The notes: generated by a model from the sequence alone, not told the origin. A stretch of 24,000 nucleotides of DNA from Acinetobacter sp. AS5 (GCF_048957595.1 NZ_JARDAL010000010.1:15150-39149), one strand, 5' to 3'. Positions 15,069 through 18,844 are shown, counted from the stretch's first letter. Program-made: numbers and translations.

Positions 15069-16586
15069 TTATGGATAACTGATAGAGGCTGGTGTGACTG
15101 ATTTGACAGAGGTTGGAATTGTATTGCCTCCACCTTTGGCTTTTCCTAACGTCACATTCACATTCCCTCCCATTTGGGTGGGGTCTTGAGTCATATCGGT
15201 TGTTTGGTCGCCAGTTACTAGAATATTACCAAAAACATTAATATTGGCATTACCGACGAATTTTCCTGATGCTGACCCTGTGCCTCCAGCACCTCTAGAC
15301 CCTATCATATTTCCGTATAGGAACATTGGTGCCCCTGGAGATGAGTTAAATTCGAATCCTGTATCGGTTAATAAGAGTATATTTGCTAAGTTGGCAGGAT
15401 ATGAATCCATGTCTTTAATAAATTGACTTTTATTGGCGTTAAAATAGGCCATTGTGCTATAGCCCACGGGCTTGCCAGCAGTACTAAGGTTATCGCGCAG
15501 AATTGCATCATGTGGTTTGCAGTATTGTGTTGGATAATTGTTTGCTGGGCAGACTTTATTTAAACGAGCTAGAATATTTGCATCATTCGCTTCTAACAGA
15601 TAGTGATATGGAGCATATGCATGGAATTCTGCACCGTGCTGATTACCGTTAGGCTGGACAGATTTAATTGTTCCTGTTGCAATAATAGTATTAATTATAT
15701 CATCATTCCGAGTGTATGCGTTGCTCGCTATTTGATCATTCTTTTTTTTCATCGTTAAATTGACATCGCCATCAAACCAAGTAATCCCCGCTAGTTGTGC
15801 AGCTGAACTATCAAACGTCCACACACCGCGGCTCAATGACACACCGCTTGGGCATGTGATTGATGTTTTTGTTGTAATATTGCTTGTACCTGATAAGTTA
15901 TTTTTAGAGCAGATAGCAGCTCCAGCCGGACTTTTTTCAAAAATATAATTGGCATCTGATTTCAAACTCATTGCATCAGGAATATTTATTCCGCCTAAAT
16001 ATGTAGTAACCGTAATATTTCTGACAGTTCCACCTCCTGTAATTGTACCAGCATTAGCACCACCAACGGCAATTGATACATTGTCTCCTACTATTCCACT
16101 AAATTCTGCACTTCCGAAAACCTTCAATCCACTCGCAAAGATCGACCCTGTTACAGTGCTCGTTGTTACCGTATCGGTGACTTTAAACAAGGCGCGTAAA
16201 ATGGCTTTGGCACCGCCACTTTCGCCTATAATATCAAAGCAATAATTCCCCATTCCAGAGGGGCAGCTTGGGGATTTGTTGTAGTTAATGACTGTACCTG
16301 TCGTAGACGTAACCGTGCCTGTGGTGGTTGCGGCTATTTTCGCCATATCCATATTTGAACTTTTTAAAAACTCAGATAAGGCTTGATAACCGACCATAGT
16401 CTGCATTTGAGCTTGAGTTTGTGCATGCGTGGTTACCGCACTCGATTGCATGGTCTTTACGGAAGCCACGTAGCCAATCGTTGCAACGGTTAGAGTCATT
16501 CCCACTAGCAAAATAAATAGCAAAGATGTGATGCCAGACTGTCGTCGTTTCATATTGATTTTTTTATGAATACCCTTTGTTTTCAT
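15069..16586 (-). CDS. PilX-like minor pilin-associated protein with about 370-aa C-terminal extension (candidate pilus tip protein)
   Basis: 505 aa with RBS AAGGAGA. The N-terminus RRQSGITSLLFILLVGMTLTVATIGYV...MQSS is PilX_N-like with no Glu5. A PilX-type core ends around CPSGMGNYCFDIIGESGGAKAILRALFKV. After it comes a Gly/Thr/Asn/Ser-rich region with further Cys pairs. Confidence 0.6.
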   Translation of the reverse strand: MKTKGIHKKINMKRRQSGITSLLFILLVGMTLTVATIGYVASVKTMQSSAVTTHAQTQAQMQTMVGYQALSEFLKSSNMDMAKIAATTTGTVTSTTGTVINYNKSPSCPSGMGNYCFDIIGESGGAKAILRALFKVTDTVTTSTVTGSIFASGLKVFGSAEFSGIVGDNVSIAVGGANAGTITGGGTVRNITVTTYLGGINIPDAMSLKSDANYIFEKSPAGAAICSKNNLSGTSNITTKTSITCPSGVSLSRGVWTFDSSAAQLAGITWFDGDVNLTMKKKNDQIASNAYTRNDDIINTIIATGTIKSVQPNGNQHGAEFHAYAPYHYLLEANDANILARLNKVCPANNYPTQYCKPHDAILRDNLSTAGKPVGYSTMAYFNANKSQFIKDMDSYPANLANILLLTDTGFEFNSSPGAPMFLYGNMIGSRGAGGTGSASGKFVGNANINVFGNILVTGDQTTDMTQDPTQMGGNVNVTLGKAKGGGNTIPTSVKSVTPASISYP

Positions 16587-16603
16587 TTTAGTTCTCCTTG
16601 CTG

Positions 16604-17266
16604 TTATGGGTTCAGTAGACAGGTGGTGTTGCGAATTTGTCTAGCGACACTATCACTACTTGCCGCATAACTATATGCAGTCACTTCAATGGTAAATTTA
16701 CCCACAAGACCGCTGACGGCTGGATTTGAGTTGATAATGCCGAATGGTGTGCAATTCGTTGCATCACTGACTTTAAACTCGAACTCACCTATACGGTTGT
16801 TGCTATTTTTAATTGTGGTGTTTGCGCTTTTAATCGGCATCAATAAAGTTTTGGTTGCCCCTGTGCTTGGGACTATTGCCTCTGAACAGCTATAACTCGA
16901 ATATAGATTTAAACCATCAGTTTCATTGGCAAGGGCTTGGCAAATCGCACCTGATTTCCAAACAAATATAGGGCCAGCAGTGCCTTTTGTAATGAGCGTT
17001 CCATTTGCAGCTCGAACAGCAAAATTGGTACCATAAACCAAAGGAGTGGCAGAGTCATATCCTATGCTTTGCATCATTTTGTCAATGGAAATCAGTCCCA
17101 ACATTAGCATGCTGTCTGTACCTGCGCCTAAACTTGATTCTGCGGTCAATTTCCCTGTTGTGATAAAAACCCGAGACATCGCTAACACAATAATAATTGC
17201 CAATGTCATAGCAATGAGCAGTTCAATCAGCGAGACACCCTTTTGGGAGAAGTTTAAAGTTTTCAT
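16604..17266 (-). CDS. PilW/GspJ-like minor pilin
   Basis: 220 aa. Prepilin signal MKTLNFSQKG/VSLIELLIAMTLAIIIVLAM. RBS GGAGGAAAAAATATG. Confidence 0.7.
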   Translation of the reverse strand: MKTLNFSQKGVSLIELLIAMTLAIIIVLAMSRVFITTGKLTAESSLGAGTDSMLMLGLISIDKMMQSIGYDSATPLVYGTNFAVRAANGTLITKGTAGPIFVWKSGAICQALANETDGLNLYSSYSCSEAIVPSTGATKTLLMPIKSANTTIKNSNNRIGEFEFKVSDATNCTPFGIINSNPAVSGLVGKFTIEVTAYSYAASSDSVARQIRNTTCLLNP

Positions 17267-17283
17267 ATTTTTTCCTCCCTTGT

Positions 17284-17709
17284 TTAATAAGGTTTAATGT
17301 CTGCTGGGATTGGAACAAATGCGTTATTGTTGGTGTTGTTTTGAACTTTTAATGCTGGGAATTTCACTTTTATTTCCCCAGTAGTTGTTGATGCGATACC
17401 ACCACCACTGCCATAGGCTGCGACGGTATAAGAGCCTTCTGTGTAGGTGCAATCTAGGTTGATATTTGTGGATGCTACGGTGATGGTTTTTGTACCAGCC
17501 GTTATGCACTGTGAAGATTCCAGTTGATTGCGCATTTGGCTAATGGTGTGTAAATGCACATTTTGATCACGATGAATCACTGCTGTACGTGCAGCAATAA
17601 AAGCACTTCCCAATCCAATAATTGCCATTAAAAAAATGGAAATGAGAACTTCAATCAGTGTCACACCACGTTGCTTTGAAAACGGATGCTTATAATTTAG
17701 CTGTCGCAT
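17284..17709 (-). CDS. PilV/GspI-like minor pilin
   Basis: 141 aa. Signal ...FSKQRG/VTLIEVLISIFLMAIIGLG. GGAGG lies 5 nt before the ATG at 17709. It overlaps the upstream gene by 20 nt. Confidence 0.65.
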   Translation of the reverse strand: MRQLNYKHPFSKQRGVTLIEVLISIFLMAIIGLGSAFIAARTAVIHRDQNVHLHTISQMRNQLESSQCITAGTKTITVASTNINLDCTYTEGSYTVAAYGSGGGIASTTTGEIKVKFPALKVQNNTNNNAFVPIPADIKPY

Positions 17710-18130
17710 CTGTGCCTCCATTCGCTGTAATCGTATAGTCTGTGCACGTCGAGATATTTTGACCGTTATTGTTGAATTGTAAGGGAGTGGTGCAGCCAGT
17801 CGGGCTAAGACTGATAGTCACTGGTGCAGGTATTTTAGCTTTCCAAATAACGACAGGAGTGGCTTTGGCATTTTCAACCGTTATTTCTTTGCTAGTATTG
17901 TTAATTTTAAGGGTTGCCGCTGCGGTAGTCGCACCAATAACACCCTCAGGGTTCTGTAAAGCTTCATTTCGTACTTTGCCCAAAGCTTCAACTAAGAGTT
18001 TTTCCGCATTGCTGATGTTTGTATTGGCCATCCATGCTTGCCCTAAAGGCATAACTTTGGTGGCCAATAGACCCAATAGCGCAATTGTAATGAGTAGCTC
18101 TATGAGCGATACACCATGTTGTTTTACCAT
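17690..18130 (-). CDS. FimT/FimU/GspH-like minor pilin
   Basis: 146 aa. Signal MVKQHG/VSLIELLITIALLGLLA. Its start overlaps the upstream stop (ATGGTAA). An alternative start exists at 18148. Confidence 0.65.
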   Translation of the reverse strand: MVKQHGVSLIELLITIALLGLLATKVMPLGQAWMANTNISNAEKLLVEALGKVRNEALQNPEGVIGATTAAATLKINNTSKEITVENAKATPVVIWKAKIPAPVTISLSPTGCTTPLQFNNNGQNISTCTDYTITANGGTDATAKL

Positions 18131-18609
18131 GATGACATCCCGCCACATGTTGTACCTCCGCTAATGGTACGCGTGTTGGCTTGGTTGAGCGTTAACGTGC
18201 AACCAGCATTTCGAGTTCCTGTTTTTCCTGTTGCTGTTAAGGTGTATCCTGTCATTTTTGGAGGGGTGGCGCTGTTCATAGTGCCACTTACTGTATAATC
18301 AAAACTATCCGCTGATGGTTGCCAATCTGTAGCATAGGTTTTAGTTTCTGCGGTCGTTGTGGTTGGGTTTGGAGAGGGTGCAGTATAGGCTAAAGTTCTG
18401 AGGTAATTTCTTTCGACTACAAGGCTGAGCGCCACCAGATCAGAAGCTGCACTTTTGGCCTTAGATTTGGTAACATAGCTTGAATATGAAGGTAATGCGA
18501 TTGCCGCCAAAATAGCAATAATGGCAACCGTCACCATCAGTTCAAGGAGTGTGAATCCTGAGTGTTTTTTAGACTGTGTTTGAGTTAACACGAAGGATTT
18601 TTGAGTCAT
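18124..18609 (-). CDS. PilE-like type IV pilin (first gene of cassette)
   Basis: 161 aa. ...KKHSG/FTLLELMVTVAIIAILAAIALPSYSSYVTKSKAKSAASDL, with a C-terminal Cys pair (GC...TTCGG). The start is uncertain: ATG at 18609, GTG at 18591 or ATG at 18666. Confidence 0.7.
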   Translation of the reverse strand: MTQKSFVLTQTQSKKHSGFTLLELMVTVAIIAILAAIALPSYSSYVTKSKAKSAASDLVALSLVVERNYLRTLAYTAPSPNPTTTTAETKTYATDWQPSADSFDYTVSGTMNSATPPKMTGYTLTATGKTGTRNAGCTLTLNQANTRTISGGTTCGGMSSW

Positions 18610-18844
18610 AGGACGTAAAAAAAATATATTGAATGGGCAATCTTTTTTCATTGAATGAATGTCCATAATTACAAAAAATTTATCTTAACTTTGAGTGTAA
18701 ATTAATTAGATATAAACAAAAGAATAAAAGTGACCAACGAGATAAAAATAGAGATAAATGGTTGGCTGTACATGAATTAAAAAAAACGATCAAAGATTAA
18801 AACTTAAAAAAACAATTTAAAAAGTTGTGAGGAGAAACTCGTGT

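Follow-up and report, generated by a model that had tools for sequence, protein, structure and literature searches.

Analysis of a 24,000-nt stretch of DNA from Acinetobacter sp. AS5 (the window, to which all coordinates below refer) revealed a cassette of five genes for pilin-like proteins, c1 to c5, on the minus strand of the slot between ispH and rpsP, where a minor-pilin operon with a large pilY1 gene had been expected (Table 1). An ORF finder returned five minus-strand open reading frames (ORFs). Those of c1, c4 and c5 had the limits listed in Table 1; those of c2 and c3 were longer (17690-18148 and 17284-17721), and the likely true starts of both genes lay downstream of the ORF-finder starts. 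When the minus strand was read directly, the stop codon of c1 overlapped the likely ATG of c2 in the sequence ATGGTAA (18130-18124), and c2 and c3 overlapped by 20 nt (17690-17709), as had been predicted. The strong ribosome-binding sites claimed for the whole cassette were present for c3 (GGAGG, 5 bases before the likely ATG at 17709), c4 (GGGAGG) and c5 (AGGAGA), but no clear Shine-Dalgarno sequence was seen on this strand before c1 or c2. The start of c1 was ambiguous (18666, 18651 or 18609), with a leader of at least 18 residues before G/FTLLELM. The best explanation of this layout is a single operon. Scanning for promoters and terminators was uninformative: upstream of the cassette there was no recognisable sigma-70 promoter, and promoter-like sites were fewer than in shuffled sequences. 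A repeat search of the window found only a repeated prepilin-coding segment, and no direct or inverted repeats flanking the cassette that would mark a mobile element.

Table 1. Features of the ispH-rpsP slot and of the pilA locus in the window. The slash follows Gly(-1); E, expectation value.
Feature	Position	Strand	Assignment and evidence
c1	18124..18666	-	PilE/ComE-like type IV pilin, G/FTLLELM, Glu5 present
c2	17690..18130	-	FimU/GspH-position minor pilin, MVKQHG/VSLIELL
c3	17284..17709	-	PilV/GspI-position minor pilin, MRQLNYKHPFSKQRG/VTLIEVL
c4	16604..17266	-	PilW/GspJ-position minor pilin, QKG/VSLIELL, 220 amino acids
c5	15069..16586	-	ComZ-like putative cap pilin, 505 amino acids, QSG/ITSLLF, Gly(-1) kept, without Glu5
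ispH	14012..14980	+	Left slot border, convergent with c5; ORF and synteny in L006, L028, L030-L037
Canonical pilV remnant	18845..19247	+	Frameshifted, in-frame stop; TIGR02523 E 1.3e-12
IS5-family transposase remnant	19323..19950	-	Degenerate, between pilV and pilE2 fragments; NF033579 E 7e-11 and 1e-8, two fragments
Canonical pilE2 3' end remnant	20006..20122	+	Residues 112-146 of 147 (~35 codons); tblastn with L033 PilE2, 56% identity, E 1.5e-7
rpsP	20272..20529	+	Right slot border; ORF and synteny
pilA	4380..4832	+	Intact major type IVa pilin; Pfam Pilin PF00114 E 1.4e-10 and N_methyl
tfpO/PglL	6115-7749	+	O-oligosaccharyltransferase, 544 amino acids; PglL_A and Wzy_C

The first four proteins carried the predicted prepilin signals, HSG/FTLLELM (c1), QHG/VSLIELL (c2), QRG/VTLIEVL (c3) and QKG/VSLIELL (c4), all with Glu5, and scored 38.4, 27.3, 30.8 and 23.3 bits, respectively, against Pfam N_methyl (gathering cut-off, 21.2 bits). 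In a class III signal peptide test, c1-c4 were type IV pilin-like, with Gly(-1), a hydrophobic helix and Glu5. When the window was translated in six frames, the motif G[FVIM][ST]L[ILV]E[LVMI][LM] had exactly five occurrences, far beyond chance, one each in c1-c4 and one in pilA. Only c1 shared a domain, ComP_DUS, with canonical PilE1 and PilE2 (Pfam, 38.1 bits, above the cut-off), and its best canonical match was PilE1 (34% identity over residues 23-150, E 1e-8, tblastn). By sequence, c1 resembled the PilE/ComE-type linker pilins of the ComP_DUS family and not a major pilin; the first description of c1, as the "pilin" of the cassette, needed correction in this respect. An intact gene for the major pilin, pilA, lay 10 kb away.

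The matches of c2-c4 were weaker. Residues 1-97 of c2 aligned with A. junii FimU at 24% identity (E 3e-6, tblastn), and its sub-threshold NCBIfam matches, to PRK10506 ("prepilin peptidase-dependent protein") and GspH, reached to about residue 65. For c3, NCBIfam gave only weak matches, to PilV and YgdB models. Only the N-terminal 70 amino acids (aa) of c4 matched PRK10557 ("prepilin peptidase-dependent protein", E 8e-6), and a c4 homologue was annotated PilW in one source. The AlphaFold (AF2) model of c4, built on the narrower alignment A5 (predicted local distance difference test, pLDDT, 74), showed a long helix followed by beta sheets and had no significant match in the PDB by Foldseek. When the family profiles of c2, c3 and c4 were compared with PDB sequences, they matched the shared N-terminal pilin helix or nothing, and c3 had no match past that helix. 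None of the Pfam domains GspH, Tt1218-like/PilV, PilW (PF16074), PilX_N (PF14341) and PilY1 (PF05567) was found in c1-c5 at E up to 1. The H, I and J labels of c2-c4 are therefore given provisionally, on position, size and weak N-terminal matches. The profile and tblastn results agreed with the original prediction that the five proteins are not close orthologues of canonical FimU, PilV, PilW and PilX, the best values being the c2-FimU and c1-PilE1 identities given above.

The fifth protein, c5, began with the hydrophobic sequence RRQSG/ITSLLFILLVG without Glu5, an N-terminus that by sequence resembles those of GspK and PilX. It had been described as a PilX_N-type uncleaved N-terminus; its hydrophobicity was borne out, but no PilX_N match was found, and Gly(-1) was conserved in at least 90% of the homologues, so that "uncleaved" was not established. 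None of the c5 proteins tested from Acinetobacter and Betaproteobacteria belonged to a Pfam or NCBIfam family. The AF2 model of c5, calculated from a 26-sequence alignment (pLDDT 80; predicted template-modelling score, pTM, 0.75), consisted of a helix (residues 21-76), four strands (89-144), a beta-rich region (148-481) and a final strand (489-503). In Foldseek searches of the PDB, the model matched a single structure significantly, Thermus thermophilus ComZ (6QVI; three chains, probability 1.0, E 1e-7 to 1e-6); beyond it the best match had an E of 1.4, and nothing significant was found in BFVD. A GspK-like tip pilin, ComZ carries a beta-solenoid between its penultimate and last strands, is encoded with PilA1-3, and binds the GspI-like PilA2 and DNA (PMC6561018). 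In the c5 model, a beta-rich domain of ~340 aa was apparently inserted into the pilin fold, also between the penultimate and last strands, and the ComZ match suggests that this insert is a solenoid. Comparison with L006, one of the comparison loci (L001-L037) fetched from other genomes, labelled as an A. lwoffii metagenome-assembled genome (MAG) and sharing ~94% DNA identity with the window, showed that residues 1-145 of c5 were 88% identical and the last 20 residues 90%, whereas residues 146-485 were only 55% identical. The C-terminal end thus co-varied with the N-terminal core while the insert diverged, which supports the late-insert topology. The missing Glu5 and the likeness to ComZ, itself GspK-like, would agree with the proposed assignment of c5 to the GspK/PilX class.

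The slot in which the cassette lay was compared among Acinetobacter genomes through an IspH search and inspection of the neighbourhoods. In A. junii (L032), in L031 and in the metagenomic lineage L033/L034, the slot held, on one strand, ispH-fimU-pilV-pilW-pilX-pilY1-pilE1-pilE2-rpsP, the content and direction that the original prediction had given. In these canonical operons fimU encoded GspH, pilV Tt1218-like, pilX PilX_N and pilE1 and pilE2 ComP_DUS domains, and pilY1 encoded 1308-1356 aa; the PilY1 (PF05567), PilW (PF16074), PilX_N (PF14341), Tt1218-like/PilV and GspH/FimU domains were all present in the operons of L031-L034. In the window, the cassette lay between ispH and a stump of pilV, at fimU's place, and none of its genes was of PilY1 size, as expected from the first reading of the sequence. 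The dead canonical pilV next door was also confirmed: in addition to the TIGR02523 match, PilV of L031, L032 and L033 aligned by tblastn (E to 1.6e-14) with residues 1-65 at 18845-19045 and residues 91-125 at 19143-19247. The pilE2 remnant sat just upstream of rpsP, and the same remnant was present in L006. Both ends of the canonical operon therefore survived in the window, and everything from the middle of pilV to near the end of pilE2, pilY1 included, was gone.

Remnants of the canonical operon differed among the related loci. The window and L006 each kept a pilV stump and a pilE2 tail beside the cassette; L009 had a pilV stump after a directly oriented cassette (tblastn); L028 had a C-terminal fragment of PilY1 together with fragmented pilE1 and pilE2 (split gene calls, tblastn); and L030, L035 and L036 had insertion sequence (IS) transposases in the interval. 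From these remnants we infer that the cassette and the canonical operon once stood side by side and that the canonical set was lost piecemeal in separate lineages. If the cassette made the canonical set dispensable, such piecemeal, lineage-specific loss would be expected. The original prediction that the priming and tip module had been swapped was right in that the canonical operon was present here only as fragments, but rather than a "swap", the history is better seen as one in which both sets were resident and the canonical operon then decayed independently. A presence/absence polymorphism within one species, with L031 (IspH 97% identical) as the other state, was considered and rejected, the flanks sharing only 80-86% DNA identity.

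The cassette was widespread beyond this slot. A genome scan, tblastn synteny and a motif scan showed that the five-gene order was conserved in 11 Acinetobacter loci; in all loci examined the order was kept and no PilY1-sized gene lay inside the cassette. Homologues of c5 were all annotated as hypothetical and without a Pfam domain; those with a named source came from A. terrestris, A. terrae, A. indicus, A. towneri, A. albensis and others, and a full hidden Markov model search gave a family of 349 members at E up to 1e-3 among 1.84 billion representatives (50% identity level). At least four genomic contexts were found in Acinetobacter. The cassette was inverted in the ispH slot in the window, L006, L028, L030 and L035-L037; it was in the same slot in direct orientation, toward rpsP, in Acinetobacter sp. 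TSRC1-2 (L009, 7922-12427); it lay between a fatty-acid desaturase gene and HAD-DUF1615 in A. indicus, A. terrae, A. terrestris, L008, L010 and L029; and L004 and L011 represented two other metabolic neighbourhoods. The inverted layout was thus normal for the A. lwoffii-like clade and not a quirk of a single genome, and the orientation varied between lineages, as the direct one in L009 shows. No flanking repeats in the window would explain the inversion relative to L009. Likewise, the idea of a swap specific to this slot and genome had to be widened, since the inverted layout was clade-wide and the module occurred at other loci, although the canonical operon was indeed reduced to fragments. 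More distant versions were carried by Betaproteobacteria (Comamonadaceae, Azoarcus, Rhodoferax, Variovorax and Tepidimonas; L012-L027), in which c5 had 690-800 aa (for example, L018, 7922-12295). In Azoarcus indigens (L018), the one such locus inspected for it, no gene of the type IV pilus (T4P) machinery was found near the cassette, and the neighbours were metabolic genes. In L012-L027, c3 started with G/DA[LM]LEAL, and c4 started with G/[IV]SLISLM, without Glu5.

Synonymous divergence (dS) between the window and L006 changed abruptly within the cassette. It was 0.04-0.25 in the flanking housekeeping genes and 0.02-0.06 in c1 and c2, but 0.54 in c3, 0.64 in c4, 0.99 in c5 overall, 1.36 in the c5 insert only and 0.79 in ispH. 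By sequence, this pattern marks an imported recombination block spanning c3 to ispH. The IspH protein was 92% identical to that of L006, against 99-100% for gmk, rpoZ and spoT, whose dS was 0.23-0.25; ispH appears to have hitch-hiked in the block with c3-c5. The ratio of nonsynonymous to synonymous divergence (dN/dS) was 0.07-0.28 for c1, c3, c4 and c5, which indicates purifying selection on these proteins; c2 was nearly identical in the two genomes (dS 0.02), and its ratio was uninformative. The middle region of c5 was hypervariable, and recombination exchanges it, yet it is under purifying selection. Among three A. indicus strains whose flanks were 98-100% identical, the cassette alleles were only 36-66% identical across comparable genes, and the module behaves as an exchangeable allelic island. 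The cassette lay at ~7970-11660 in L001, L003 and L029 (A. indicus and a close MAG); in L003, c2 was interrupted by a Transposase_mut element, a second copy of which followed c5. In this it resembles the ComC/FimU/PilV cassettes of A. baumannii, which recombine as alleles (PMC10374093), and such variation is expected of an exposed tip.

Taken together, these data make it reasonably probable, in our judgement, that the cassette encodes a self-contained module which primes and tips type IVa pili independently of PilY1 and whose cap bears a solenoid. The ComZ-like c5 with its large beta-rich insert would be the key to the missing PilY1. In the proposed arrangement, c5, a pilin of the GspK/PilX class without Glu5, would form the distal cap, its inserted ~340-aa beta-rich domain having the architecture of Thermus ComZ and cyanobacterial PilX. 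The proteins at the PilV/GspI and PilW/GspJ positions, c3 and c4, would form the tip core with c5, and the FimU/GspH-like c2 and the PilE-like c1 would link this core to the PilA fibre, PilA being the presumed fibre subunit primed by the cassette. All five proteins would be processed by PilD and assembled by PilBC and PilMNOPQ from other loci; the 24-kb window held no gene for an ATPase, platform protein or secretin, in agreement with what had been noted before. The c5 insert may take over the role of PilY1 as tip "plug", adhesin or receptor. In one survey, all 38 A. lwoffii genomes carried pilBCD, comLMNOQ and pilTU, and the strains twitched weakly (PMC11237425, Table S7). The cassette is probably the working priming set here, the canonical operon having decayed in this clade. 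The analysis itself showed the gene structure, the prepilin signals, the distribution of the family, the synteny, the remnants, the fold match to ComZ, the recombination and the purifying selection; from these we infer the function, including the subunit order, the cleavage of c5, the substitution for PilY1 and the tip ligand. The broader proposal, which we put forward only tentatively and hold to be possible, is that a ComZ-like solenoid-bearing PilX primes and caps a proteobacterial type IVa pilus free of PilY1, that the module is an exchangeable hypervariable tip-specificity cassette, and that it has functionally displaced the ancestral PilY1 operon in the A. lwoffii-like clade.

Several points weighed against this reading. 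On the structural side, the template-modelling score (TM-score) between c5 and ComZ was only ~0.2, and the c5 family profile (A1) found no PDB sequence, ComZ included, at E up to 10; the ComZ match could reflect convergence of a pilin helix and a beta-helix. The insertion point in c5 was read from the order of secondary-structure elements only, not from coordinates, and c3 and c4 were left unclassified by both sequence profile and fold. On the genomic side, the loss of the canonical set here was seen within the 24-kb window, not genome-wide. Of seven genomes labelled A. lwoffii, four were included in the ComC tree of Iruegas et al., and NIPH 715, WJ10621 and TG19636 were out; some genomes under this label thus have ComC, and within the A. 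lwoffii group PilY1 looks polymorphic in its presence. The tree also included A. indicus and A. towneri, and their cassette lies at another locus, which makes it an extra set there and not a replacement. On this indirect evidence, some species have both the canonical set and the cassette at the species level, each strain having been examined for one of the two.

The occurrence of both sets in A. indicus and A. towneri at the species level, as drawn from the same tree, also favours the main alternative explanation: that the cassette provides a second, accessory group of minor pilins to prime a specialised filament or tip, such as a competence or adhesion pilus, which shares the machinery and does not replace the canonical set, and that the canonical loss here removed one pilus function. 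The weak twitching of A. lwoffii and the location of the cassette at the fatty-acid desaturase/HAD locus in A. indicus, A. terrae and A. terrestris would fit this explanation, and in cyanobacteria two core minor-pilin sets serve two kinds of filaments (bioRxiv 10.64898/2026.02.12.705559). We nevertheless consider it unlikely: the repeated decay of the canonical operon was confined to places where the cassette adjoined it. T4P assembly generally requires a priming set, and both the machinery and pilA were retained in the clade. The accessory-set mechanism overlaps with that of the self-contained priming module and differs from it only on whether the cassette suffices alone.

The gene order of the cassette mimics gspG-H-I-J-K, which had led to the remark that the cassette follows the same logic as a type II secretion system (T2SS) pseudopilin block, and c5 lacks Glu5 like GspK. 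The likeness of gene order stood, but no Gsp equivalog cut-off was reached: the weak matches to the NCBIfam models scored 37.6 against a cut-off of 88.85 for GspG, 38.1 against 80 for GspH, 19.4 against 44.35 for GspI and 15.8 against 64.85 for GspJ, and covered only the shared N-terminal helix. In addition, c5 had no T2SSK/GspK match, c1 fell into the ComP_DUS/PilE family, no secretin, ATPase or platform gene was adjacent in ~35 loci, and the cassette was located inside the T4P minor-pilin slot. On the NCBIfam scores, a T2SS-like block serving secretion was therefore rejected as highly improbable. The lack of a recognisable sigma-70 promoter, the unclear start of c1 and the pseudogenes and IS remnants littering the surroundings might suggest that the cassette no longer functions and is only a silent or decaying relic. 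This is scarcely credible given the selection on its proteins, the five ORFs all being intact both here and at over 15 loci from different species, the translational coupling that has been kept, and the size of the c5 family.

Among known systems, the Thermus thermophilus locus pilA1-pilA2-pilA3-comZ-pilA4 (Salleh et al. 2019, PMC6561018) was among the closest in design: one operon encodes several small GspH/I/J-like minor pilins and a ~500-aa pilin-like protein that lacks Glu5 and carries a beta-rich domain inserted late in the pilin fold, and there is no PilY1. The two loci differ in that c5 and ComZ have no detectable sequence similarity and a low TM-score, in that ComZ is not predicted to be processed by PilD whereas c5 keeps the conserved Gly(-1), and in that the pilin gene is last in Thermus and first in the cassette. 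Acinetobacter, moreover, is a proteobacterium that ancestrally had a PilY1 set. The binding of DNA and of a PilA2-like partner is a feature of Thermus ComZ, to which c5 is likened from the fold only. All cyanobacterial PilX proteins are reported in a 2026 preprint to share the same solenoid design, which was proposed to replace PilY1 (bioRxiv 10.64898/2026.02.12.705559). The FimT-PilW-PilV-PilX sets described there form a priming complex without PilY1, in which the capping PilX holds, between its penultimate and last strands, a beta-solenoid proposed to be the tip plug, and several alternative sets are possible per genome. The preprint describes proteobacterial PilX homologues as small, and the cassette would be the proteobacterial counterpart; unlike the cyanobacterial sets, it is hypervariable and recombining and co-occurs with or displaces a PilY1 set. 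The likeness lies in the design.

Compared with the canonical fimU-pilV-pilW(comB)-pilX-pilY1(comC)-pilE(comE/comF) operon, the cassette has the same slot, the same number of pilin-like subunits (at FimU-, PilV-, PilW-, PilX- and PilE-type positions), the same presumed machinery and recombining alleles. However, it lacks PilY1, and the Pfam domains GspH, Tt1218-like, PilW and PilX_N of the canonical proteins are missing from c2-c5. PilX is half as large as c5, the first gene is the PilE-like one, and the orientation is opposite in this clade. The T2SS tip GspH-GspI-GspJ-GspK likewise has an enlarged cap without Glu5 (GspK) on an I-J core with H as adaptor, but the insert of GspK is alpha-helical and at another position, and no T2SS genes lie near the cassette.

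In proteobacterial type IVa pili, the roles of tip adhesin, plug and mechanosensor are held to belong universally to PilY1/ComC. The canonical components are reported throughout Acinetobacter in a published survey of the genus. The architecture proposed here is known from Thermus ComZ and cyanobacterial PilX, and in the literature searched we found no description of it in Proteobacteria, nor of the c5 family, the five-gene module, its hypervariability or its co-location with a decaying PilY1 operon. Our results suggest that a second tip design coexists with the PilY1-dependent one in Acinetobacter and Betaproteobacteria, and that this second design can occur on its own once the PilY1 operon is lost to decay. 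If so, the clade would be a natural swap experiment with two known tip architectures on one machinery, the dispensability of PilY1 in the presence of a solenoid cap would become testable in one genus, and so would the target of the solenoid (DNA, surface or phage) and the cause of its variability. Because the c5 family has no Pfam or NCBIfam model, such loci are hidden from surveys of T4P genes.

The pilA locus (4326-7749, plus strand) comprised pilA, with its likely start at 4380, a 120-aa ORF, a gene for a FimB-like membrane protein of 244 aa and the TfpO/PglL-type gene. It was located in an island of low GC content (0.31-0.32), and tfpO was 89% identical to that of L006, the neighbouring genes being 99-100% identical; the pilA-tfpO locus may be another recombining surface-variation island. 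Downstream of it, at 8496-9557 (plus strand), an IS200/IS605-type TnpB with OrfB_IS605 and a Cas12f1-like TNB domain was encoded, which was absent from this site in L006; a 100% identical copy of the protein was found in L030 and an 85% identical one in A. indicus L001. A lipase-like alpha/beta-hydrolase was encoded downstream of rplS at 22955-23923 (minus strand). Its paralogues, also found at 24-3651 of L006, stood in tandem in L006 and L030, in arrays of three to four members that shared 42-94% identity with the window copy, and a lipase chaperone gene was present in L028 and L035. The gene at 2571-3614 (plus strand) encoded a TPM-domain protein whose C-terminal tail was long and rich in glycine (GGGFGGGG...), and the antisense proline-rich ORF of 171 aa at 3272-3787 was its mirror image and probably spurious.

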